Shown here: piece after piece, positions 1 to 36,992 of the stretch
How the letters are laid out: each line of letters opens with the position of its first letter
Position numbering within the stretch: position 1 is the stretch's first letter
Assembly: GCA_963771835.1 (NCBI GenBank)
Contig: CAVYVA010000006.1
Span: 36,495 to 100,494 of the forward strand
Length of the DNA stretch: 64,000 bases
Source of the DNA: an uncultured Actinomycetota bacterium
GTDB lineage: Bacteria; Actinomycetota; Actinomycetes; Prado026
Direction: 5' to 3'
Notes under the pieces: model-generated
The model's input: the letters and a program-made list of their open reading frames with translations, nothing else
What the model was told of the DNA's origin: nothing
Database searches by the model: none
Program-made: the position numbers and the translations under genes

Positions 1-1185
1 GTCGAGGTCACGCTGCACACGCGGTTCACGCGGTGCTCGGGCCCGCTGTCGCTGGGCGACCCCATCTACACGACCACGCTGCTGCCGGGTGAGAAGGTCC
101 GGCTGGCCACCACGGACCGCCGGAGCCGGTTCAGCTTCGACAGCGAGAGCCAGCTGAGCTACCACAGCGAGCAGATGTCCGAGGACCAGTACCGGATGTC
201 CGCCCTGCGGGCGGTGATGTCGGACTCAAGCAGCACCGACAACGGCTCCAGCCGGAACACCGACCAGGGGTCGTGGGACTTCCACGGCGACGCCAGCGGC
301 GGCATCGGGTTCTTCTCGGCCAGCGCGGACGCGAACGCGAAGGGCAGCCACAACGCCTCGTCCACCGCGGACTACCTGCGCGAGCACAAGGCGCACGCGA
401 CGATGGCCGACAACATGTCCGTCGAGGCCACCCGCAAGGCGCACTCGATGTCGATCGGCGAGGTGTCGACCCGCGCGCACTCCGAGGGCGAGTCCGAGGA
501 CCACTTCGAGTCGTCCTCGCGCGAGTTCACCAACCAGAACCAGTGCCACGCGGTCTCGTTCTACTTCTACCGGATCAACAAGTGCGAGACGATCACGTTC
601 GAGCTCGTCGCCATCGACCGGCGGGTCATCGACCCGGTCGCGCCGACGCCGGTCCTGGCCAACCCGGTCCGCGCCGTCGGCCAGATCGCCACCGTCCCGC
701 AGGAGGTCCCCGCGACCGCGACGGCACGGCTCGACGTCGAGGCGCGCGGACTGGCCAGCCAGGCCCAGTACGCCGCGGCCGGCCAGTCGCGGCTGGCATC
801 CCTGTTCGCCGTGGGCGCCTCCTTCGAGCCGGCCGGTGCGCCGCTGCCGGCCGCCGTCCGCACCGCGGCGCTCGCGGAGGTGGACGAGGCGCTGGTCGAG
901 CAGGGCCTGCTGGACAAGGGCACCGGCCTGGTCTCCACGCAGACGCAGGAGGAGATCGGCTTCTCGCGGACCACCTCGCTGCCGACGGCCGGCGTGGTGG
1001 TCAAGGGGTGCCTGGACGACTGCGAGGTCTGCGAACCCGCGCTGAAGCGCAAGATCAAGCTCGACCTGGACCGGCAGGAGCTCGAGAACGAGCTGCTCAA
1101 GCGGCAGATCGAGCTGCTCGACCAGTCGCAGGAGTACCGGTGCTGCCCGCCGGCCGCTCCCGAGCCGGCACCCGCCCAACCCTGA
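1..1185 (+). CDS. Uncharacterised protein, 5'-truncated; Ser/Thr-rich core with amphipathic beta-hairpin, C-terminal Cys motifs and coiled coil (possible beta-pore-forming protein)
   Basis: Frame 1 is open from base 1 (VEVTLHTRFTRCSGPLSLGDPIYTTTLLPGEKVRL...) through the tracked 175..1185 ORF to TGA; strong GC3 codon bias; motifs FTNQNQCHAVSFYFYRINK and LPTAGVVVKGCLDDCEVCE. Confidence 0.85.
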   Translation, partial: VEVTLHTRFTRCSGPLSLGDPIYTTTLLPGEKVRLATTDRRSRFSFDSESQLSYHSEQMSEDQYRMSALRAVMSDSSSTDNGSSRNTDQGSWDFHGDASGGIGFFSASADANAKGSHNASSTADYLREHKAHATMADNMSVEATRKAHSMSIGEVSTRAHSEGESEDHFESSSREFTNQNQCHAVSFYFYRINKCETITFELVAIDRRVIDPVAPTPVLANPVRAVGQIATVPQEVPATATARLDVEARGLASQAQYAAAGQSRLASLFAVGASFEPAGAPLPAAVRTAALAEVDEALVEQGLLDKGTGLVSTQTQEEIGFSRTTSLPTAGVVVKGCLDDCEVCEPALKRKIKLDLDRQELENELLKRQIELLDQSQEYRCCPPAAPEPAPAQP

Positions 1186-1213
1186 CGACCCGACCCGAGC
1201 AGGAGCGTGCACC

Positions 1214-3175
1214 ATGCCGGATGACCTCGACCCCTCCGAGCTCGTCGACGGCGCGCAGGCGATAGCAGCGCTGGCCCAGGACGAGGACCGCTTCCGGGCC
1301 GCCTTCGACGCGTTCCGAGCCTCGGACCGGGACTCGTTCCAGCGGCTGCTCGGCGAGCTCGGCCTGACCGAGCGCTGCGAGCTGGTGACCGAGTGGATCT
1401 GCAGCAAGGAGTGCGTGCTGCTGTGCCTGGAGCTGTGCGGTCCGCCGGTCGAGGGCGACCTGCCGGACCTGCGCGAGTTCGCCGAGGTCCTGGTCAAGGT
1501 CACCGGCGACGAGGAGCTGGTGGAGCGGCTGGCCGAGACCGTCGCCGCCCGCGACGTCGAGGGCTTCCGGTCACTGGTCGCCGAGCTCAAGATCGAGCGG
1601 TACTGCCACCTGCTCTGCCACTGGGTGTGCGCGGTGCGCTGCCGGCTGCTGCGCGAGATCGTCTGCGCGCCGGTGCCGGGCCCGGTCCGGTACCTCGAGG
1701 ACGAGCTCGCCGCCGCCGGCGCCGTCGTGGCCACCCTGGTCGCCGACAAGGAGGCGTTCGCGGTCGCCGAGAAGGCCGTGCTCGCCGGCAACTGCGACCT
1801 GGTCCGGGAGACGGTCGCGCGCCTGCGGCTGACCGACCACTGCGCGATCGTCTGCGAGTGGTTCTGCAGCTGGCGCTGCGTGCGCGTGTGCCGGCTGATG
1901 TGCCGCGGGTTCGACTTCCCGCAGGTCGACCTGTCGCTGGCCGAGGCCTTCGAGTTCGCGAAGGTCACGGCCCGGCTGGCGGCCGAGCCGGACGTCCTGC
2001 CGCGGTTGTCCGCCGCCGTGCAGGCGCAGGACGCACCGGCGTTCGAGGAGATCGTCACCAAGCTGGAGCTGGGCCGGTTCTGCATCCAGCTGTGCCACTG
2101 GATCTGCTCGTGGCAGTGCCACCGCTTCTGCCGCTGCGTGTGCCCGCCGGTGCTGCAGCCGTGGTTCACCCAGGTCGGCCACTTCGACATCTACGCCGAC
2201 ATCGACCCGGGCACCGGCCTGACCAACAAGGGCCTGAGCTACTCCGGCCTGTACTTCAACGGCGGCCCGGACTTCGCGTTCCACGGCTGCCTGGAGCTGC
2301 GCGGGTTCTGCCCGGCGGGGTCACCGATCGACGGGACGCCGATGAAGTACCGCTTCGTGCTCGCCGGCAGCGGCCTGCCGCTCACCGGGAGCCGCGTCTG
2401 CCCAGTGGACGCGGGCACCCGGCGGATCCTGTGGCCGGTCAACTCCAGCGGGGTCGCCGGGACCACGCAGGTCCTGACGTTCCAGTCGATCAGCATCGAG
2501 GGCGCACCGGTCGCGGACACTCCGCCGCCGGCCCCCGGCGACCCGTGGTTCGGGCCGGTCAAGCACGTGATCGCCCCGGACTCCGACGGCTGGATCCCGG
2601 TGGACCAGGACAGCGTGTCCGGAGGCTTCACCACGCTGGTGGGCTTCAACAGCACCGATCCGGTCCCCGGCGGGACGCCGCCCTCGCCGCCGCCCGTGGC
2701 CGGCTCGCCGGTCGCGACCGGCGACCAGAAGAACGGCGCCGACCTGGGCATCACGTTCGAGGCGACCAGGATCTCGTTGCCGCCGGGCCCGCCGGACTCC
2801 ACGAACTCGCTCGCAAAGATCCACATCAACAACTGGGCCGAGGTCAACCTGCTGGACATCACCGAGTTCCACTCCGGCGGCGGCACCGCGTGCACCGGGA
2901 TCACCACCGACCTGCACGTGGAGTACACCACCGACCACGAGCTCATGAAGGAGTGGGACGCGGTCATCACCAGCGCCGCGCTCACCCTGCCGGTGACGGT
3001 GGCCAGCGGGCCGACCGTGCCGGCGCCCAGGGGTGACGGCGCGATCGTCGCGGTGTCCACCACCGGGTTCAAACCCTGCTCGTACGTGGTGACGCTGAGC
3101 ACGCGGGCCGGGCTGACGGACGGACTCATCGACAACGTCGGGTGGAGCCGGCAGCTGACCTTCTGCGTGAAGTAA
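1214..3175 (+). CDS. Uncharacterised 653-aa protein: four ~78-aa helical repeats each ending in CxxxCxWxCxxxCxxxCxxxC, plus a beta-rich C-terminal domain
   Basis: Intact ORF, AGGAG RBS at 1201-1205, repeats visible by eye, 30 Cys counted. Confidence 0.9.
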   Translation: MPDDLDPSELVDGAQAIAALAQDEDRFRAAFDAFRASDRDSFQRLLGELGLTERCELVTEWICSKECVLLCLELCGPPVEGDLPDLREFAEVLVKVTGDEELVERLAETVAARDVEGFRSLVAELKIERYCHLLCHWVCAVRCRLLREIVCAPVPGPVRYLEDELAAAGAVVATLVADKEAFAVAEKAVLAGNCDLVRETVARLRLTDHCAIVCEWFCSWRCVRVCRLMCRGFDFPQVDLSLAEAFEFAKVTARLAAEPDVLPRLSAAVQAQDAPAFEEIVTKLELGRFCIQLCHWICSWQCHRFCRCVCPPVLQPWFTQVGHFDIYADIDPGTGLTNKGLSYSGLYFNGGPDFAFHGCLELRGFCPAGSPIDGTPMKYRFVLAGSGLPLTGSRVCPVDAGTRRILWPVNSSGVAGTTQVLTFQSISIEGAPVADTPPPAPGDPWFGPVKHVIAPDSDGWIPVDQDSVSGGFTTLVGFNSTDPVPGGTPPSPPPVAGSPVATGDQKNGADLGITFEATRISLPPGPPDSTNSLAKIHINNWAEVNLLDITEFHSGGGTACTGITTDLHVEYTTDHELMKEWDAVITSAALTLPVTVASGPTVPAPRGDGAIVAVSTTGFKPCSYVVTLSTRAGLTDGLIDNVGWSRQLTFCVK

Positions 3176-3553: not shown

Positions 3554-4654
3554 GTGCCGAGCCCGAGGACGGCGTCCAAGACCCTCGACCGGATCGAGGC
3601 GGTCGCCGGCCGGGCGGCCGGGGCCGCCGAGCTGCGGGCGGCGCTGCTGGATGTGCTGCGCCCGGCGATCGGCTTCGACGGGTACGTGTGGCTGCTGACG
3701 GACCCGGTCACCACGGTCGGCGCAGCCCCGCTCGCGGACCTGCCCGGCATCGCCCCGGCCGAGCTGCCGGGTCTGATCCGGGCCAGGTACACCAGCGGAG
3801 TCAGCCGCTGGACCGTGCTGACGCAGCAGCCGGACCCGGTGGCGCTGCTGGACTGCGCCGGCGTCGACCACCCGGGCGCGTCCGGGACCGGGCGGTCCGC
3901 GTGGGAGCAGCTGCTGGCCCGGTACGGGATCGGCGCGGTGGCCTCGACGGTGTTCGCCGACGCGTACGGCTGCTGGGGGTTCCTCGACCTGTGGCGCGGC
4001 GTGGCCCGCGCACCCTTCGACGAGGCCGACGCCGCGCTGCTCGCGGGCGCCGCCCCGTCCGTGACCGCCGCCCTACGCAGGTGCCAGGCCCGCACCTTCG
4101 TCGCGCCGGCGCGGCCGCACCGCAGTGACTTCGCTCCGGTCGTGCTGACCCTGGACGACGACCTGCGGATCGTCGGACGGACGGCCGCGTCACAGGACTG
4201 GCTGGACCGGCTGCTGCCCCCCGCGCCCGGCGTCGACGCGGTACCCGCGAGCGTGTTCAACGTGGCTGCGCAGCTGCTCGCCGCCGAGGCCGGCGTCGAC
4301 GACCACCCGGCCAGCTCGCGGACGCATCTGGGCGACGGGTTCTGGCTGACCCTGCGCGCGGCGCGGATGGCGTCCGCCGACGGCACCGACCCGATCGTCG
4401 TGAGCATCGAGGAGACCTCCGCCGTCGAACGGGTGGAGCTGTTCACCCGGGCGCACGGCCTCAGCGCGCGCGAGCACGAGCTCTTCGGACTGCTCGCCAC
4501 CGGCGCCGACACCCGCGCGATGGCTCGCCTGATGGGACTGTCCGAGCACACCGTCCAGGACCACCTGAAGTCGATCTTCGCCAAGACCGGGGCGCGCGAC
4601 CGAGTCACGCTGCTCTCGCGGGCGCTGGGCACCGGGCTCACCCCGGCTCCGTGA
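3554..4654 (+). CDS. GAF-like + LuxR-type HTH transcriptional regulator
   Basis: C-terminal LSAREHELFGLLATGADTRAMARLMGLSEHTVQDHLKSIFAKTG. Confidence 0.85.
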   Translation: MPSPRTASKTLDRIEAVAGRAAGAAELRAALLDVLRPAIGFDGYVWLLTDPVTTVGAAPLADLPGIAPAELPGLIRARYTSGVSRWTVLTQQPDPVALLDCAGVDHPGASGTGRSAWEQLLARYGIGAVASTVFADAYGCWGFLDLWRGVARAPFDEADAALLAGAAPSVTAALRRCQARTFVAPARPHRSDFAPVVLTLDDDLRIVGRTAASQDWLDRLLPPAPGVDAVPASVFNVAAQLLAAEAGVDDHPASSRTHLGDGFWLTLRAARMASADGTDPIVVSIEETSAVERVELFTRAHGLSAREHELFGLLATGADTRAMARLMGLSEHTVQDHLKSIFAKTGARDRVTLLSRALGTGLTPAP

Positions 4655-5682: not shown

Positions 5683-8079
5683 TCAGATCGGCGGCCGGGG
5701 TCGGCCCTGCATGGCGTCCCACACCCGCGAGGGCGTCAGCGGCATGTCCGCGTGCCGGATGCCGAACGGCCTGAGCGCGTCGACGACCGCGTTCACGATC
5801 GCCGGCGGCGACCCCACCGTGGCCGCCTCCCCCACCCCCTTGGCCCCGATCGGGTGGTGCGGCGACGGGGTGACCGTGAACCCGGTCTCCCAGTCGGGCA
5901 CCTCGATCGCGGTCGGGATCAGGTAGTCCATCAACGAGCCGCCCAGGCAGTTCCCGTCGGCGTCGAACGCGATCATCTCCATCAGCGCCATGCCGACCCC
6001 GTCGGTCAGGCCTCGGTGCACCTGGCCCTCGATGATCATCGGGTTGATCCGGGTGCCGCAGTCGTCGACGGCGACGAACCGCCGCACCTTGACCTGCGCG
6101 GTGCCCGGGTCGATGTCGACCACGCAGATGTACGCGCCGAAGGGGTACGTGAGGTTGTCCGGGTTGTAGCAGATCTGCGCCTCCAGGCCGCCCTCGACGC
6201 CCTCGGGCAGGTCGCCGGCGCCATGCGCCTTCCGAGCGATCTCCTGGATCGTCACGGACGTCGACCGGTCACCGGTCACGCGGAACGCGCCCTTGTCCCA
6301 CACCAGGTCGGCCGGCGAGATCTCGAGCATGCCGGCGGCGATGAGCCGCGCCTTGTCCCGCACCTTGCGCGCGACCAGCACGGCCGCGGCGCCGGACACC
6401 GGCGTGGAGCGGCTGCCGTAGGTGCCGAGGCCGAACGGGGTCTGGTCGGTGTCGCCGTGGACCACCTCGATGTCCGCCGGTGGGATCCCGATCTCCTGGG
6501 CCACGATCTGCGCGAACGTCGTCTCGTGCCCCTGGCCCTGGGACTGCACCGACAGCCGCAGCGACAGCCTTGCCGGTCGGGTGCACCCGCAGCTCGCAGC
6601 CGTCGGCCATGCCCAGACCGAGGATGTCCATGTCCCGGCGCGGACCGGCGCCGACCGCCTCGGTGAAGAAGCGAGACGCCGATACCCATCAGCTCGCCGC
6701 GCTCGCGCCGCTGCGCCTGCTCGCGGCGCAGCTCGGTCGTAGCCGGCGATCCGCATCGCCTCGCGCATGGCCGGCTCGTAGTCGCCGGAGTCGTACACCC
6801 ACCCGGTCCTGGCCCGGTACGGGAACTGCTCGGGCCGGATGAAGTTCTTGATCCGCAGCTCCACCGGGTCCATGCCCAGCTCGTAGGCCAGGCAGTCGAC
6901 GATCCGCTCGACGAGGTAGACCGCCTCGGTGATCCGGAACGAGCAGGAGTACGCCACGCCGCCGGGCGCCTTGTTCGTGTAGACGGCGGTCATGGTGCAG
7001 TGAGGCGGCCTGCAGGTCGTAGCTGCCGGTGAACACGCCGAAGAAGCCGGCCGGGTACTTCACCGGCGCGGCCGTCCCGTTGAACGCGCCGTGGTCGGCG
7101 AGGACGTGCGCGCGCACCGCGAGGATGGTGCCGTCCCGGGTCGCCGCGATCTCGCCGCGCATGATGTAGTCGCGGGCGAAGGCCGTGCTGGTGAGGTTCT
7201 CCGAGCGGTCCTCCATCCACTTGACCGGCTTGCCGGTGAGCAGCGAGCCGACGATCGTGCAGACGTACCCCGGGTAGATCGGCACCTTGTTGCCGAACCC
7301 GCCGCCGATGTCCGGCGAGACGACCCTGATCTTGTGCTCGGGCAGCCCGGTCACCATCGCGTACAGCGTGCGGTGCGCGTGCGGCGCCTGGGTGGTCGAC
7401 CAGAGCGTCAGCCGGCCCTCGACGGCGTCGTAGTCGGCCACCGAGCCGCACGTCTCCATCGGGGCGGGGTGCACCCGCGGGTAGACCAGGTCCTGGCTCA
7501 CCACGACGTCGGCGGCGGCGAACACCGCGTCCGTGGCGGCTCGGTCTCCGGTCTCCCAGTCGAAGCAGTGGTTGTCGGACTTGCCGGGCAGGTCGTCGCG
7601 GATCACCGGGGCGTCGGGGTCGAGGGCCGTGCGCACGTCCACGACGGGTCGCAGCGGCTCGTACTCGACGTCGATGAGCTCCAGCGCGTCGCGCGCCGCG
7701 TACCGGTCCTCGGCGACGACGAACGCGACCTCCTGGCCCTGGAACCGCACCTTGTCGGTCGCCAGCACCGCCTGCACGTCGTCGGCGAGGGTCGGCATCC
7801 AGGCCAGCCCGCGCTCGGCGAGCATCGCCCCGGTCACGACCAGCGGACCTTCGGGTGCGCCTGCGCGGCGATGGTGTCGATGCTCAGGATCCGCGCGTGC
7901 GCCATCGGCGAACGCAGGATGGCCAGGTGCAGCATGCCCGGCAGCTGCACGTCGTCGCAGTACCGGCCGCGGCCGCGGATGAACCGCGGGTCCTCCTTGC
8001 GCAGCATCCGGCCGTAGCCGACGGGGTGCTGGTCGTTGTCGACGAACGCGGTCACCGGACCGCCCGTGCCCGCGGTCAC
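5683..8079 (-). CDS. coxL: Aerobic Mo-Cu CO dehydrogenase large subunit, form I, copy 1 (mycobacterial-like); several frameshifts
   Basis: [31 protein letters not shown], active-site [14 protein letters not shown] (6934-6954), [12 protein letters not shown]-terminal WDAMQGRPRPPI. Confidence 0.92.
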
Positions 8080-8607
8080 GACACGGCCTCGGCCTCTGAC
8101 TCGGACTCTCGACTCGGTCCCGGACGGGTGGAGGGCGGTCCGGGTGCCGGCCTCCTCCGCGGCCGCCCACTGCACCGAGCGAACGATGCTGGCGTACCCG
8201 GTGCACCGGCAGATCTGGCCGGAGATCGCCCGCCGGATCTCGGTGGCGGACGGGGTCGGGTTGCGGTCCAGCAGCGCCCGCGCGGTCATCAGCATCCCGG
8301 GGGTGCAGAAGCCGCACTGCAGACCGTGGCACTGCATGAACCCGCGCTGGACCGGGTCGAGCACGCCGTCGTGCTCGAGCCCCTCGACCGTGCGCACCTC
8401 GTGACCGCCGGCCATCGCGGCCAGCACGGCGCAGGACTTCACCGGCTCGCCGTCGAGCCACACCACGCACATGCCGCAGTTGCTCGTGTCGCAGCCCCAG
8501 TGCGTGCCGGTCAGGCCGAGATCGTCGCGCAGGAAGTGCACGAGCAGCAGCCGGCCCTCGATCTCCCGGGTCACCTCGTCGCCGTTGACCGTCATGCTCA
8601 CCAGCAT
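8076..8607 (-). CDS. coxS: CO dehydrogenase small (2x[2Fe-2S]) subunit, copy 1
   Basis: [26 protein letters not shown]; stop reconstructed as a GTGA overlap with the coxL start. Confidence 0.9.
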
Positions 8608-8609
8608 CG

Positions 8610-9489
8610 TCAGCCCCCCGCCTGTCGGATCCGCGCGACCGAGCGGCGCAGCGCGCGTCGGGTCAGCTCACGGGCCAGGTGCCGCTTGTAGTCCGCGCTG
8701 CCGCGCTGCGTCCGTCACCGGGCTGCAGCTGCGCGCCGCGATGTCGCCGGCCTGGGCGTACAGGTCCTCGGACGGGGTCTGGCCGACCAGCAGCTCGGAG
8801 ACCGCCGGGAGGCCGGCGGTGTCCGGCCCCACCGCCGCCAGACCCACCCGCGCATCGGCGATCAGACCGTGGTCCATCCAGACCGCCGCACCGGCCGAGA
8901 CCACCGCCCAGTCCCCGGCCCGCCGCTCGACCTTCTCGTACGCGCTCGAGCCGCCCGGGCGCACCGGGAAGCGGATCTCGGTGAGCATCTCGGCGACGCC
9001 GACCGCGGTCTCGTACGGGCCGCGGTGGAACTCCTCCATCGAGACGACCCGCTCGCCGCCGGTGCCCCGGATCACGCAGCTGGCGTTCAGGGTGGTGCAG
9101 ACCGCGGACAGGTCCTCCGAGGGGTCGGCCTGGCACAGCGAGCCGCCCAGCGTGCCCCGGTTGCGGACCGGCGGGTCGGCGATCACCTGCTCCGCGTCGG
9201 CGAAGATCGGGAACGCCTCGGCGAGCTCGGCCGACTCGAGCAGCTCGCGGTGCCGGGTCATGGCGCCGATCCGGATCCACCGCGGCTCGACCGTGATGTA
9301 GCCGAGCTCGCCGTGCAGGTCGTTGATGTCGATGAGGTACTCGAAGTTGGCCAGCCGCAGCTTCATCATCGGCAGCAGGCTCTGCCCGCCGGCGACCAGC
9401 CGCGCGGTCTCGCCCAGCCGGTCCAGCAGCCCGATCGCCTGGTCGACGCTCGTGGCCCGCTCGTACTCGAACGGCGCCGGCACCTGCAT
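8610..9489 (-). CDS. coxM: CO dehydrogenase medium (FAD) subunit, copy 1; frameshift near C-terminus
   Basis: MQVPAPFEYERATSVDQA, AGGQSLLPMMKLR, VRNRGTLGGSLC, KVERRAGDWA. Confidence 0.92.
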
Positions 9490-9530
9490 CCCCGGAGGCT
9501 AACGGCCGGGCGGGGCGCTCGCCGAGTGAC

Positions 9531-9931: not shown

Positions 9932-10809
9932 ATGTATCCGTCCCGGTTCCGCTACGAGGCCCCGCGCTCGCTCGACGAGGCGATCGGCCTGCTGCACCAG
10001 GGCGCCGGCGAGGCCAAGGTGCTCGCCGGCGGGCAGAGCCTGGTCCCGCTGCTGAAGCTGCGCTTCGCCGCGCCGGAGCTGCTGGTCGACATCAACAACA
10101 TCCCGGGCTGGACTACCACCGGGTGGACGCCGACGGCACCATCCACGTCGGCGCGCTGTGCCGGCACGCCGACCTGGAGCGCTCGACCATCCTCGCCGCC
10201 CGGCAGCCGACGATGGCCGCCGCCGCCCCGCTGATCGCCGACCCGATCGTGCGCAACCGCGGCACCCTGGTCGGCTCGCTGTGCCACGCCGACCCGCAGG
10301 GCGACTGGGCGTCGGTGGTGACCGCGCTCGGCGGGCACGTCGTCGCCCAGGGACCCGGCGGCCGGCGCACCATCCCGGTCGCGGAGTTCGTCAGCGGCCC
10401 GTTCCAGAACGTGCTCGCCTACGACGAGATCGCCGTCGAGGCCGTCATCCCGGCGTCCGAAGGGCACCCCCGCCGGCGGCTACCTCAAGCTGGAGCGGCG
10501 GGTCGGCGACTTCGCCACCGCCGGCGTGGCCGTGGCGATCGAGACCTCGGGCGACCTGGTCACCCGGGCCGGCATCGCCCTGACCGGCGTCGGCGGCTCG
10601 ACCATCGACGCCACCGAGGCCGGGCAGGCGCTGGTGGGCCAGGCCGCTGACGCGCGGACAGCATCGGCCGGGCCGCCGACCTGGCCGCGCAGGCGGCCCG
10701 GCCCCGGACCGACCACCGCGGCAGCGCGGAGTACAAGCGGCACATCGTGCACACGTTCGTCGTGCGCATCCTGACCCGCATCACCGAGTCCGCGGAGAGG
10801 GCGGCCTGA
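9932..10809 (+). CDS. coxM: CO dehydrogenase medium (FAD) subunit, copy 2; frameshifted
   Basis: [56 protein letters not shown]. Confidence 0.9.
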
Positions 10810-32080: not shown

Positions 32081-33766
32081 TGCGGGTGATGGCGCAGCTC
32101 GCGATGGTGATGAACCTCGACAAGTGCATCGGGTGCCACACCTGCTCGGTGACCTGCAAGCAGGCATGGACGAACCGCTCCGGCGTCGAGTACGTCTGGT
32201 TCAACAACGTCGAGACCAGGCCGGGGCAGGGCTACCCGCGCCGGTACGAGGACCAGGGCCGCTGGCGCGGCGGATGGCGGCTCAACCGGCGCGGCCGGCT
32301 GGCCCTGCACCGCCGGCGGCCGCGGCCGCAAGCTCCTCGTCGATCTTCTCCAACCCGCTGCTGCCGAACATCAAGGACTACTACGAGCCCTGGACCTACG
32401 ACTACGAGAACCTCATCTCCGCGCCGCTCGGCGACGACTTCCCGGTGGCCGAGCCCAGGTCGTTGCTGACCGGCCGGCCCACGAAGATCGAGTGGAGCGC
32501 GAACTGGGACGACGACCTCGGCGGGGCGCCCGAGCACGGGCACCTCGACCCGGTCGTGGAGCAGCTGCGTCGCGACGCGGTCGACAAGGTGCGCTTCGAG
32601 TACGAGCAGGCGTTCATGTTCTTCCTGCCGCGGATCTGCGAGCACTGCCTGAACCCGTCGTGCGTCGCGTCCTGCCCGTCCGGGCGCGATGTACAAGCGC
32701 AGCGAGGACGGCATCGTGCTGGTGGACCAGGACCGCTGCCGCGGCTGGCGGATGTGCGTGACCGGCTGCCCGTACAAGAAGGTGTACTTCAACCACCGGA
32801 CCGGCAAGGCCGAGAAGTGCACGTTCTGCTACCCGCGCGTCGAGGTCGGTCTGCCGACCGTGTGCAGCGAGACCTGCGTGGGTCGGCTGCGCTACATCGG
32901 TCTGGTGCTCTACGACGCCGACCGGGTCACCGAGGCGGCCTCGACCGCGGACCCGCAGGACCTGTACGAGGCCCAGCTCGACCTGATGCTCGACCCGAAC
33001 GACCCCGAGGTCGTCGCCGCGGCCCGGCGCGAGGGGATCAGCGACGACTGGGTCGAGGCGGCCCAGCGCTCACCGGTCTACGCGCTGGCGAAGACGTACC
33101 GGGTCGCGCTGCCGCTGCACCCGGAGTTCCGCACCATGCCCATGGTCTGGTACGTGCCGCCGCTGTCCCCGGTGGCGGACGCGCTGCGCGACACCGGGCA
33201 CGACGCGGAGGACGTCGACAACCTGTTCGGGGCGATCGACACGCTGCGCATCCCGGTCGAGTACCTCGCCGGCCTGTTCACCGCCGGCGCCACGGCCCCG
33301 GTCACCGTCGGTGCTGCAGCGGCTGGCGGCGATGCGCGCGTACATGCGCCGGGTGACGCTCGGCGAGCAGCTCGACGAGTCGATCGCCGCGGCGGCCGGC
33401 ATGACCGGCGGCGAGGTCACGGCGATGTACCGGCTGCTGGCGATCGCCAAGTACGACGAGCGGTACGTCATCCCGTCGGCGTACGCCGAGCAGGGCCACG
33501 CCCTGGAGGAGACGGCGTGCAGCCTCGACTTCGACGGTGGCCCCGGCATGCTCGACAGCGGCCCGTTCGGCGAGGCCTCCGGCCGGCCCGTCCCGGTCTC
33601 GGTGGAGACCTTCCACGCGCTGCGCGAACGGCAGACCGGCGGCGAGGTGGTCGACACCGACCAGCCGCGGTCGCGGGTGAACCTCCTGAACTGGGACGGC
33701 AAGGGCGCGCCGTCAGGACTGTTCCCGCCGCGACGGCGCGACGGCGGGCCGGAGGCCCGGCGATGA
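32080..33766 (+). CDS. narH: Nitrate reductase beta subunit; frameshifted
   Basis: MNLDKCIGCHTCSVTCK, PRICEHCLNPSCVASCP, CRGWRMCVTGCPY, KCTFCYPR. Confidence 0.95.
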
Positions 33767-34453
33767 GCCGGCCGGACCAGCCCGCCGTGGTCCTGCAGGC
33801 GGCGTCGGTGCTCCTGCAGCTACCCGGACGACCGCGTCCTCGGCGGCGATGCCCGCGGTGCGGGCGCCGTCCGCGAGCTCGCCGACGGTCCGGCCCGGCA
33901 GGACCTGCAGGGCTTCCTCGACGCGGTGGGCCCGATGGGCGCGCTCGAGCTCCAGCAGCACTACGTCGGGACGCTGGACCTCAAGCGACGCTGCTGCCTG
34001 TACCTGACCTGGTGGACCGAGGGCGAGACCCGGCGGCGGGGGCTGGCCCTCGCGCAGCTCAAGCAGCTCTACCGCGAGCGCGGCTTCGAGCTGGACTCGA
34101 CCGAGCTGCCCGACTTCCTGCCGGTCGTGCTCGAGTTCGCCTCCGCCGACGTCGACCTCGGCCTCCGCGTGCTCCAGGACCGACGGGCCGGGGTCGAGCT
34201 GCTGCGGCTGGCCCTGCACGAGGCGGCGTCGCCGTACGCCGGCCCGGTCGAGGCGGTCTGCTCGCTGCTGCCTGGCCGGTCCCCCCAGGACGAGGCCGCG
34301 GCCCGGGCGCTGGCCCGCAACGGACCGCCGGGCGAGCAGGTGGGCCTCGAGCCGTACGGGGCCGGCCCCGATCGCCACGCGGGCGCCCGCCCCGGCCCGG
34401 TCGACCTCGATCTCGGACCCACGTCGCTGATCCCGACGGGGGCCCGCCGGTGA
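33763..34453 (+). CDS. narJ: Nitrate reductase chaperone (delta)
   Basis: YVGTLDLKRRCCLYLTWW, ELPDFLPVVLEF; position in operon. Confidence 0.88.
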
Positions 34454-35209
34454 GCACCCTGGACATCGTGCTGTGGGGGGTCCTGCCCTACGTCGTCCTG
34501 GCCGTGCTCGTCGGCGGCACCGTCTGGCGCTGGCGGTACGACCAGTTCGGCTGGACCACCCGGTCCTCGCAGCTGTACGAGTCGCGGCTGCTGCGGATCG
34601 GCAGCCCGCTGTTCCACTTCGGGATCCTCGTGGTCCTGGTCGGGCACGTCATCGGGCTGCTGGTGCCCAAGTCGCTCACCGACCGCGCCGGTCTGAGCCA
34701 GGAGGCGTACCACGTCCAGGCCGCCCTGCTCGGCGGGGTCGCCGGGCTCGCGACGCTGGTCGGCGTCGGCATCCTGGTCTACCGGCGACGAACCACCGGT
34801 CCGGTCTTCATGGCCACCACGCGCAACGACAAGACGATGTACGTCGTCCTGGTCGCCGCGATCGTCGCCGGGCTCGCCACCACGCTGCTGGGCGTGCGGG
34901 CCACCGGCGACGCGCACAACTACCGGCTCACGCGTGTCCCCGTGGTTCCGGTCCCTGTTCGTGCTGCGTCCCGACGTGCAGGCGATGGCGTCGGCCGACG
35001 CGGCGTACCACGTGCACGTCCTGATCGGGATGCTGCTGTTCGCGATCTGGCCGTTCACCCGGCTGGTGCACGCGTTCAGCGCGCCGGTCGGCTACCTGTT
35101 CCGTCCCTACGTGGTGTACCGGCGGCGGACCATGGCCGGCGCGGCACCCACGACCCGCGCCGGCCGCCGCGGCTGGGACGCCGGCGGTCCGGGCAGCCGG
35201 GGACGATGA
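34450..35209 (+). CDS. narI: Nitrate reductase gamma (cytochrome b) subunit; one frameshift
   Basis: YDQFGWTTRSSQLYE, LFHFGIL..GH, HVLIG..WPFTRLVH. Confidence 0.92.
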
Positions 35210-35216
35210 TGCCGGC

Positions 35217-36992
35217 ATGCACGACATCGCCGAGTTCCTGCGCCGGCACCCGCCGTTCGACGCGCTCGACGACGCGGCGCTGGAACGGGTGTCGGACGCC
35301 GTGCACATCGAGTTCTTCCCCCGTGGCGCCGTGGTCCTCGAGGCGGAGGACGCGGGCGGCTCCGGTTACGTCATCAGGACCGGGACCGTCGACCTGATCG
35401 AGGACGGCCGGGTGGTCGACCACCGGGAGGTGGGGGACGTGTTCGGGGTCGCGTCCACCCTGACCGGCGCGCCGACGGCGCTGCGGGTGAGCGCCCACGA
35501 CGACCTGCTCGTGTACCGGTTCCCGGCCTCGGCCCTGGGGTCGCCCGGGACCGGCGCAACCATGGGGACCGGCTCCGTCGGGCCCGCGGTCCGGTCGATC
35601 CTGCGCCCGGCGGTCGTGCTCGACCCGGACGACCGGGTGCGCGAGGCGGTGCTCCGGATGGGAGAGGCGGGGGTGTCCGCCGTCCTCGTCCGGCAACGCG
35701 ATGGCGGGCTGGGGATCGTCACCGACCGCGACCTGCGCAGCCGGGTGCTGGCCGTGGACGGGCGCGGACCCGAGACGCCCCTGGCAGCGGTGATGAGCGA
35801 GGACGCGGTCTCGACCGGGGCCGGGGCTCCGGCCGACGAGGCGCTGCTGCTCATGCTCGAGCACGCGGTGCGGCACCTGCCGGTCGTCGCCCGCGACGGC
35901 ACGGTGGTCGGCCTGGTCGAGGACGTGGACCTGCTCGCCGCCGAGGGGCACGCCCCGTTCCGGCTGCGCCGCGCGATCACGACGGCCGCGGGCGTCGAGG
36001 ACCTGGTCGACCTGGCCCGACGGCTCCCGCAGTCGCTGCTGTCCGCGGACGCCGCGGGCGTGGCACCCCTGCGGGTGATGGCGACGCGCTCGATCATCGT
36101 CGAGGCGATGATCCGCCGGCTGCTCGAGCTCACGGTGCAGGCGTGCGGCCCTGCGCCCGCCCCGTTCGCCTGGCTGGTCCTGGGCAGCACGGGCCGCCGC
36201 GAGTCCTTCCCCGCGTCCGACGCGGACACCGCGCTGGTGTGGGACGCCGACGACGAGGACGCCGCGACGGGCAGGTGGATGGAAGACCTGGCCGGGCGGG
36301 TCGTCGGCGCGCTCGCCGACTGCGGCGTGCGCAGCGACGAGCACGGCGTCGTGGCGGCGGACCCGCGCTTCGCCCGCCCGCGCACGCAGTGGCAGCGCTC
36401 TGTCGCCCGCTGGCTGGCCGACCCGATGGCGACCGACGCGCTGACGTACGTGTCGGCCCTGCTCGACGGCCGGGTCGTCGCCGGCGCCGGCGCCGGGCCG
36501 GACCGCATGCTCGGCGAGGCTCTGTCGGCGACGGCCCGGGACGAGGCGATGGTGCGCGCCCTCGGGCGCCATGCGCTCGCCCATCGTCCACCGACGGGTT
36601 TCGTCCGCGAGCTCGTCGTCCAGCACACCGGCGAGAACCGCGGCCGGCTGGACCTCAAGCTGCACGGGATGACCCCGGTCGTCGACCTCGCCCGCTACGG
36701 CGGTGTGGCCGCACGGTCGACGGCGGTCGACACTCCGCAACGGCTGCGGGACGCGGCCGCCGCCGGGGTGCTGCGCGACGGCGACGCCGCGATGCTCGAC
36801 GAGGTCTTCACCCTCGTCGCCGGACTGCGGCTGGAGCGCCAGCTCGACGCGATCCGGGCTGGTCAGGAGCCGGACGACCTGCTCGACCCCCGGACTCTCA
36901 GCCCGTTCGCACGCCGGCACCTGCGTGACGGCTTCCGGGCGGTCACCCAGGTCCAGCACTGGCTGCAGGGCGTCCTGGCGCTGGGCGGCTGA
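35217..36992 (+). CDS. cNMP-binding + CBS + DUF294 GlnD/GlnE-like nucleotidyltransferase
   Basis: N-terminal cNMP domain (FLRRHPPFDAL), CBS pair (GIVTDRDLR, VRHLPVV), NT motif LGSTGRRESFPASDADTAL, DLKLHG. Confidence 0.85.
   Translation: MHDIAEFLRRHPPFDALDDAALERVSDAVHIEFFPRGAVVLEAEDAGGSGYVIRTGTVDLIEDGRVVDHREVGDVFGVASTLTGAPTALRVSAHDDLLVYRFPASALGSPGTGATMGTGSVGPAVRSILRPAVVLDPDDRVREAVLRMGEAGVSAVLVRQRDGGLGIVTDRDLRSRVLAVDGRGPETPLAAVMSEDAVSTGAGAPADEALLLMLEHAVRHLPVVARDGTVVGLVEDVDLLAAEGHAPFRLRRAITTAAGVEDLVDLARRLPQSLLSADAAGVAPLRVMATRSIIVEAMIRRLLELTVQACGPAPAPFAWLVLGSTGRRESFPASDADTALVWDADDEDAATGRWMEDLAGRVVGALADCGVRSDEHGVVAADPRFARPRTQWQRSVARWLADPMATDALTYVSALLDGRVVAGAGAGPDRMLGEALSATARDEAMVRALGRHALAHRPPTGFVRELVVQHTGENRGRLDLKLHGMTPVVDLARYGGVAARSTAVDTPQRLRDAAAAGVLRDGDAAMLDEVFTLVAGLRLERQLDAIRAGQEPDDLLDPRTLSPFARRHLRDGFRAVTQVQHWLQGVLALGG

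Follow-up and report, generated by a model that had tools for sequence, protein, structure and literature searches.

The cysteine-ladder protein of an uncultured Actinomycetota bacterium: a four-repeat family with pairwise covarying cysteines

The copper-storage proteins Csp3 and Csp1 (PDB 5ARM, 5FIG) are antiparallel four-helix bundles with helical cysteines and frequent CXXXC pairs. Csp3 is cytosolic; all of its cysteines are helical, none is disulfide-bonded, and for 15 of its 19 Cu(I) ions the ligands are two thiolates, taken in alternation from intra-helix CXXXC pairs and from cysteines of adjacent helices (PMC5171941). The Csps are single bundles of 110-140 amino acids (aa) that form tetramers. 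They bind many Cu(I) ions per monomer, with an affinity of about 1e17 M-1. A second group comprises the twin CX3C (small Tim) proteins and the plant alpha-hairpinins, in which antiparallel helices place Cys i opposite j and Cys i+4 opposite j-4, and the small Tim proteins are disulfide-bonded in this i/i+4 pattern. In the alpha-hairpinins the C-X3-C...C-X3-C motif is likewise disulfide-bonded, and a form with six cysteines and three rungs exists (PMC11591084). We describe here the Cys-ladder protein, a protein of 653 aa with the same register, which is encoded in a stretch of 64,000 nucleotides (nt) of an uncultured Actinomycetota bacterium (GenBank assembly GCA_963771835.1, contig CAVYVA010000006.1; G000:C6:36495-100494 in our numbering). 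This whole stretch is called the window, and positions are those of the window unless otherwise given.

As in the Csps, cysteines are borne by helices: 22 ladder cysteines lie on four long helices, 16 CxxxC pairs are present and covariation places these helices in one antiparallel bundle. Whereas a Csp is a single small bundle, the ladder bundle is predicted to be buried in a 316-aa domain of 16 helices and four repeats, and this domain is fused to a 340-aa beta region. A Cys at strictly every fourth position over 21 residues, and covariation of the cysteines in pairs, also set the protein apart from the Csps. No Csp chain was retrieved at E<=10 when PDB sequences were searched with phmmer and with profiles, and since neither sequence nor fold matches, homology to Csp1 or Csp3 was rejected. 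The twin CX3C proteins and alpha-hairpinins have 2-3 rungs in a helix-loop-helix of 30-90 aa and are oxidised in the mitochondrial intermembrane space or the secretory pathway, while the ladder protein has six rungs per helix pair in two such pairs and is without an export signal. Unlike in the hairpins, its paired helices are ~50 residues (three short helices) apart, and there is no sequence homology to either group.

The only PDB sequences touched by a profile of the repeat were those of the designed bundles ABLE, KABLE and related ones, with E down to 7e-5 over three short amphipathic helices. This match reflects an idealised-helix composition rather than common descent, and the Cys ladder lies outside the matched part. 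Searches of Pfam, NCBIfam, PHROGs, PADLOC and PDB sequences, by sequence and by profile, gave no family match for the ladder protein, nor did Foldseek, in agreement with the initial annotation, which had recognised no named family. CATASP (PF20271) was rejected, as its 17.5 bits over 27 residues only (E=0.004) stay below the gathering cut-off of 29. Similarly, no known precursor of a ribosomally synthesised and post-translationally modified peptide (Nif11/NHLP-type leaders, bufferins, oxazolins) was matched in Pfam or NCBIfam, and this genome has no MNIO gene.

Repeats and ladder of the protein

The protein consists of four helical repeats of ~76 aa, each ending in a CxxxC ladder, followed by an all-beta region of ~340 aa. 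The repeats were delimited with the AlphaFold model and the repeat alignment, and the C-terminal region with the family alignment and AlphaFold; the gene was taken from the open reading frame (ORF) list and its translation, and the AGGAG from direct reading of the sequence. The features, all on the plus strand, are as follows.

1201..1205, plus strand: Shine-Dalgarno-like AGGAG, 9 nt ahead of the ATG at 1214
1214..3175, plus strand: gene of the Cys-ladder protein, 653 aa, stop codon included
1229..1447, plus strand: repeat 1, aa 6-78, three short helices and the long Cys helix H4 (aa 52-75, nt 1367-1438); ladder C55, T59, C63, C67, C71, C75; Trp W61
1457..1675, plus strand: repeat 2, aa 82-154, long Cys helix H8 (aa 128-150); ladder C131, C135, C139, C143, R147, C151; Trp W137
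1694..1912, plus strand: repeat 3, aa 161-233, long Cys helix H12 (aa 207-229); ladder C210, C214, C218, C222, C226, C230; Trp W216
1934..2152, plus strand: repeat 4, aa 241-313, long Cys helix H16 (aa 287-309); ladder C290, C294, C298, C302, C306, C310, with an extra C308; Trp W296
2162..3172, plus strand: C-terminal all-beta region, aa 317-653 (337 aa), about two Ig-like sandwiches

The G+C content at third codon positions is 0.96, in line with genuine genes of the same genome. Recounting returned the figures of the initial annotation, 30 cysteines in total, 24 of them within aa 55-310, and the four Trp at 61, 137, 216 and 296. The repeat that it had noticed is statistically significant. Alignment of aa 75-310 with aa 1-232 gives E=3e-23, and the 16 CxxxC pairs compare with 1.3 expected and with a maximum of 8 over 20,000 shuffles. 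The assertion that cysteines occupy every i+4 step holds for repeats 3 and 4 and fails for repeats 1 and 2, where T59 (i+4) and R147 (i+16) interrupt the ladder, so that repeats 1-4 carry 5, 5, 6 and 6 ladder cysteines besides the extra C308. Both positions 59 and 147 are Cys in 160 of 166 relatives. The alternation of Glu and His before the Trp, from which a duplicated two-repeat unit had been suspected, was found to be family-wide: the residue is E in 44%, H in 72%, E in 47% and H in 71% for repeats 1-4, respectively, and relatives with two repeats exist.

The C-terminal 337 aa were described at first sight as rich in Pro, Gly and Thr and beta-like. Their composition is indeed rich in Gly, Thr and Pro, and they are all-beta in the AlphaFold model. 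The best-conserved motifs of the family sit in this region (GGPxFAF, LELRGFCP, MxYRF, HINNWxEV, YTxDHE, CSYxV and TFC), as do two invariant cysteines, C560 and C622. The absence of a signal peptide was also borne out, as neither a signal peptide nor a transmembrane segment is present in the ladder protein (maximum KD19 hydropathy 1.38). No signal peptide, Tat motif, lipobox or transmembrane segment was seen by eye in those relatives and architectural variants whose sequences were read.

Pairing of the cysteines and predicted fold

Conservation was evaluated in sets of 70-166 homologues from many phyla, and covariation in the 166 non-redundant sequences. The ladder positions are 90-100% Cys except for W+2 of repeat 1 and W+6 of repeat 2, each ~40% Cys. 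Conservation of the cysteines across homologues, to which the initial annotation had tied its proposal, is thus high at most ladder positions. The two exceptions behave as one. Both are Cys in 63 sequences and both are absent in 98, while one is absent in 5, and the joint replacements are mostly Arg with Tyr, Gly, Thr or Trp.

The same behaviour was found along the whole ladder. Position x of the first helix goes with position 8-x of the second, which describes an antiparallel, in-register ladder with the pairs 55-151, 59-147, 63-143, 67-139, 71-135 and 75-131 between repeats 1 and 2 and, likewise antiparallel, 210-310 through 230-290 between repeats 3 and 4. For these in-register pairs, both cysteines are lost in 150 cells of the 166-sequence table versus 26 cells in which one is lost. 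T59/R147 of the present protein is one such jointly lost rung. Mean-field direct coupling analysis of the 166 sequences (Meff 117) ranked C75-C131 first, C63-C143 second, C67-C139 fourth and C55-C151 ninth, with C230-C290 at 45 and C222-C298 at 48 for repeats 3-4. Independent contrasts were calculated on a tree made from the C-terminal columns only, and for the in-register pairs 27.3 contrasts were in the same direction, 0 in the opposite direction and 11.7 unchanged. Registers shifted by one rung and parallel registers, taken as controls, gave ~1-2 contrasts each and were rejected, and pairings between repeats 2 and 3, 1 and 4, 1 and 3 or 2 and 4 also gave ~1-2 each. For C63-C143 alone, a sign test with 13-17 independent changes gave p ~0.002. 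By covariation, the architecture of the ladder is defined down to which Cys faces which.

The first pair of Cys helices has five rungs in 65 sequences, six in 48 and four in 24, and the second retains all six in 145 of 166. Rungs are lost singly, and the remaining two cysteines of the same layer are kept. This means that the unit of covariation is the pair and not the quartet, which disfavours Cys4 sites as the general design. Quartets of the Zn(Cys)4, rubredoxin-type Fe or Fe-S kind are disfavoured as the unit for this reason, five rungs being the commonest state of the first helix pair. Rung-wise loss fits either disulfides or two-coordinate soft-metal sites.

Further couplings connect the two helix pairs. 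H8 is linked to H12 by R144-E215 and H132/H136-S219, H16 to H4 by H295-S64 and L69-I297, and E56-A211 and E66-V223 place H4 parallel to H12. In short, H4-H8 and H12-H16 are held by Cys-Cys rungs and H8-H12 and H16-H4 by polar pairs. Together these couplings place the four long helices in an up-down-up-down bundle with six layers of four cysteines, in support of the early guess that the Cys helices pack together; the cysteines would point into the bundle. AlphaFold, run with 71 sequences, gave a single compact domain of 16 helices for aa 1-316 (pLDDT 92.5, pTM 0.91), in which three short helices and one helix of 23-24 residues occur four times. Foldseek found no neighbour of the N-domain model in the PDB (best E 0.33, TM at most 0.2) and no match with E<1e-3 for the full-length model in the PDB and BFVD. 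The matches of the beta region were generic Ig/FN3 sandwiches only, at E>=0.008. The ladder proteins are a genuine family under strong constraint, without earlier description, and their fold is new.

Family and genomic surroundings

Full-length relatives, 650-690 aa in length, numbered more than 262 in a word-indexed search; none has a name or a Pfam domain. Their sources are Actinomycetota, Thermoleophilia, Chloroflexota, Alpha- and Betaproteobacteria, Desulfobacterota, Acidobacteriota, Verrucomicrobiota, Armatimonadota and two metagenome-assembled genomes (MAGs) labelled as archaeal. The gene is carried by 140 of 185,579 species genomes in more than 8 phyla, and Geobacter, Desulfobulbales, Anaerolineaceae and Bathyarchaeota MAGs are among the carriers. 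Cultured carriers include Humibacillus xanthopallidus DSM 21776, Specibacter cremeus C1-50 and Phycicoccus badiiscoriae. Only 4 of the 61 relatives of the source genome have it, and one genome of the same genus is without it. The distribution is patchy, as for a horizontally moving accessory gene.

With a profile of a single repeat, 296 proteins were matched among 1.84 billion representatives, and three architectures were seen: four repeats with a beta region of ~340 aa as in the present protein; four repeats with longer beta regions (777-834 aa); and two repeats with a different beta region (430-615 aa). No Pfam domain was found in the ten architectural variants scanned. Some relatives, P0147 (aa ~430-500) and P0175 (aa ~330-400), carry an insert within the beta region with the pattern F.VVI..GEI(L/M)TVT...G..TV.RG..GT.A..AAAGA, which resembles a motif of phage tail-fibre and minor tail proteins.

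The genes around the ladder gene in this genome, and the three MNIO cassettes found beside it elsewhere (loci of the family are numbered with L, in their own coordinates), are listed below.

1..1185, plus strand: 3' part of the upstream gene of a 440-aa Cys-motif protein (full gene G000:C6:36357-37679)
3554..4654, plus strand: downstream gene of a LuxR-type (GerE HTH) regulator, Pfam GerE E=2e-9
L009:411-2193, minus strand: MNIO cassette
L056:10195-12222, plus strand: MNIO cassette
L079:3753-5572, minus strand: MNIO cassette

The stop codon of the upstream gene is 28 nt from the ATG of the ladder gene, and owing to this short gap the two genes are probably co-transcribed. The 440-aa protein has CCP/CPPC at its N-terminus and CLDDCEVC, a coiled coil and YRCCP at its C-terminus. 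Its family counts more than 2,300 members, 65-87% identical across phyla, unannotated and without a Pfam domain. It adjoins the ladder gene only in this genus, L012 and L027. Being absent from all 37 of the other ladder-carrying genomes tested (37/37), it was rejected as an obligate partner and is a facultative, not a family-wide, one. Elsewhere the 440-aa gene adjoins other large beta proteins and a calpain-type peptidase. A member of its family lies among TIR, SIR2 and SLATT genes in L094, and in Rhodanobacter (L091/L092) another precedes a 729-aa beta protein and a calpain-type peptidase. This 729-aa neighbour is unrelated to the ladder protein.

The LuxR-type gene is a possible local regulator. 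Ahead of the two-gene unit, at G000:C6 ~33700-36272, lie a frame for an HtrA-like protease (trypsin/PDZ) and the gene of a LysR-type regulator. Further downstream, at 5683-9498 on the minus strand of the window, are frames for the large, small and medium subunits of an enzyme of the CO dehydrogenase/xanthine dehydrogenase type, of which the large-subunit frame seems split or shifted around 6990-7060 in the ORF list.

No universal neighbour emerged from all-against-all ORF clustering of 80 loci or from a Pfam tally of the 136 nearest neighbours. BTAD leads this tally with 6, followed by DUF1360 with 5, and all others are at 3 or fewer. A BTAD/SARP regulator adjoins the ladder gene in ~12 loci, including both of the two-repeat loci examined, and a DUF1360 protein is the nearest neighbour in 5. 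In 13 loci (L062 at 10326-10697, L038, L044, L046, L051, L060, L061, L063, L065, L066, L078, L086 and L087) a small protein starting with MCCG is encoded 220-410 bp downstream on the same strand. It begins with MCCG[SQ][KR]R, continues with a low-complexity linker and ends in a conserved region of ~55 aa (..RVxGxxTGRxYEFS..VDxRDAxxL..); Pfam gave no match for it. In several other loci the nearest neighbours are proteases (papain-type, subtilase/kumamolisin, trypsin-like), and in L079 they flank the ladder gene on both sides.

Divergent MNIO (PF05114) cassettes lie within 3 kb of the ladder gene at 3 of ~82 loci, those listed, which come from three phyla. Each contains a precursor of 75-85 aa with GCxxCG and no signal peptide, an MNIO enzyme and an unannotated partner protein, and the enzyme scores under every named NCBIfam MNIO type. 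The cassette may correspond to one of the CxxC 'adjamnio' precursor groups (PMC12452194). The 41 ladder genomes hold 18 MNIO genes, and the 3 within 3 kb of the ladder gene compare with ~0.02 expected. As the cassettes own their precursors and 27 of the 41 genomes, the source genome included, are without any MNIO, the ladder protein is not, as a rule, a substrate of MNIO enzymes. Several characterised MNIO products are copper-binding peptides (PMC12452194), and on that ground the link fits a shared thiol/metal theme.

What the ladder may do

The reading that we favour, tentatively and by analogy with Csp3, is a cytoplasmic, thiolate-lined bundle that binds soft metals, most likely Cu(I), and that would work like Csp3 while being unrelated to it. 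The lack of an export signal and the occurrence in strict anaerobes and aerobes alike suggest that the thiols are reduced; together with the precedent of Csp3, the missing export signal and the strict-anaerobe carriers support the metal reading, as do the MNIO cassettes at three loci. In the core, the four long helices (aa 52-75, 128-150, 207-229 and 287-309) run antiparallel, wrapped by the twelve short helices, and the ladder would offer soft metal ions a row of thiolate sites of low coordination number. For Cu(I), Cys rungs across helices and CxxxC pairs inside one helix would serve in turn as sites; the geometry of the ladder could reproduce the alternating two-coordinate pattern of Csp3. 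The metal would be sequestered, stored or handed over in the cytoplasm, and the conserved beta-sandwich region would supply partner binding, targeting or a second function. Two-coordinate sites would fit the rung as a unit; Cys4 sites would not. The reduced state, the binding of metal, the choice of metal and the physiological role are points that we infer.

Several observations weigh against metal binding. Beside the ladder gene, no copper or metal-homeostasis gene recurs in the Pfam tally of the 136 neighbours, which is where the initial annotation had advised to look for copper genes. Loss that is strictly pairwise, with few singletons, is classically the mark of disulfides, and after the loss of a metal site a lone leftover ligand would be expected to persist. 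Rung 3 is most often replaced by Arg with Tyr, Trp or Gly, a swap that resembles compensation in the structure of an exposed seam between helices and not a change in a buried metal core. A strict spacing of 4 residues drifts by ~40 degrees per step on an ideal alpha-helix, and six cysteines therefore cannot all face one axis without distortion. In addition, the PDB sequence, profile and Foldseek searches gave no similarity to Csp in sequence or fold.

The main rival to the metal reading is a disulfide zipper, which we consider the less probable of the two and, on its own, rather doubtful. In this case 11-12 disulfides would fasten helix 1 onto helix 2, and helix 3 onto helix 4, as an extended version of the twin CX3C/alpha-hairpinin motif, giving a hyper-stable helical base for the beta-sandwich region in an oxidising place, be it after lysis, by unrecognised export or in a cross-linked assembly; in this genus the protein might act with the adjacent 440-aa Cys-paired protein. 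Pairwise co-loss with few singletons is what it predicts, and where a rung is lost, Ala-Ala or an Arg-aromatic pair takes its place, as if a cross-link had been swapped for another contact. The alpha-hairpinins form disulfides in the same antiparallel i/i+4 geometry with up to three rungs (PMC11591084), the beta region resembles adhesin, S-layer and FN3 sandwiches, some relatives bear the insert that is similar to phage tail fibres, and a Cys-motif protein without a signal peptide neighbours the ladder gene in four lineages. Against these stand the missing signal peptide, Tat motif, lipobox and transmembrane segment in this protein and, by eye, in the relatives read, the presence of the family in strict anaerobes, and the lack of any DsbA, VKOR or thioredoxin-type gene in the neighbour tally. 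Twelve disulfides in the cytoplasm of a mesophile would moreover be without known precedent, and six successive i+4 rungs would require strongly distorted or super-twisted helices.

A bolder form of metal binding, which we think unlikely, would make the bundle a natural metal cartridge, sheathed by protein and of Csp-independent origin. At least a dozen two-coordinate Cu(I) or other soft-metal ions would line up as a linear chain in its six layers of four thiolates, and the fused beta-sandwich would serve for docking. A new MNIO-made CxxC peptide would be its partner in some lineages and deliver or extract the metal, a chalkophore-plus-store outside methanotrophs.

Redox or sulfur chemistry is improbable in our estimate. 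The rungs would then switch between dithiol and disulfide (or polysulfide) and serve as a thiol buffer, a sink for oxidants or electrophiles, a redox switch or a sulfane-sulfur carrier. The many close Cys pairs in a cytoplasmic protein and the dedicated regulators nearby (BTAD in ~12 loci, LuxR here) are in line with this, and genes of pyridine-nucleotide disulfide oxidoreductases lie 1.3-3.7 kb away in 7 loci. However, these seven belong to different subfamilies (SthA, glutathione reductase, ferredoxin reductase and others), so their link to the ladder gene is probably chance. Twelve pairs are also far above any known sensor, and no thioredoxin, peroxiredoxin or sulfur-transfer gene recurs among the 136 neighbours.

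The least probable reading, to which we give very little weight, is that each repeat is a leader-like helical unit with a Cys-rich core modified by a maturase such as MNIO, with a modified protein or free peptides as the product. In its favour, the layout of the helical part is by eye reminiscent of long helical leader peptides, there is a weak CATASP match (E=0.004), the MNIO cassettes beside the ladder gene are far more frequent than by chance, and MNIO enzymes, whose targets are Cys residues, can modify even whole proteins (PMC12452194). Against it, the cassettes own a small GCxxCG precursor in all three cases, most genomes are without MNIO, no protease, exporter or cleavage motif recurs, the cysteines are predicted to lie inside a confidently folded compact domain and their pairwise covariation points to a structural role. 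The leader-plus-core suggestion of the initial annotation thus fares poorly, with no maturase in most loci or in this genome.

The module is carried by only ~300 sequence clusters among 1.8 billion representatives and shares neither sequence nor fold with anything described. Pairwise covariation identifies which cysteines face each other, hence which ones to mutate together. An oxidised ladder would exceed every known natural helical disulfide zipper in length, and it would be made with no known export signal. A metal-binding ladder, the case that we favour, would be a second and independent way of storing copper-like metals safely in the cytoplasm. Its architecture would be far more regular than that of Csp, and designed metal wires could find an attractive scaffold in it.

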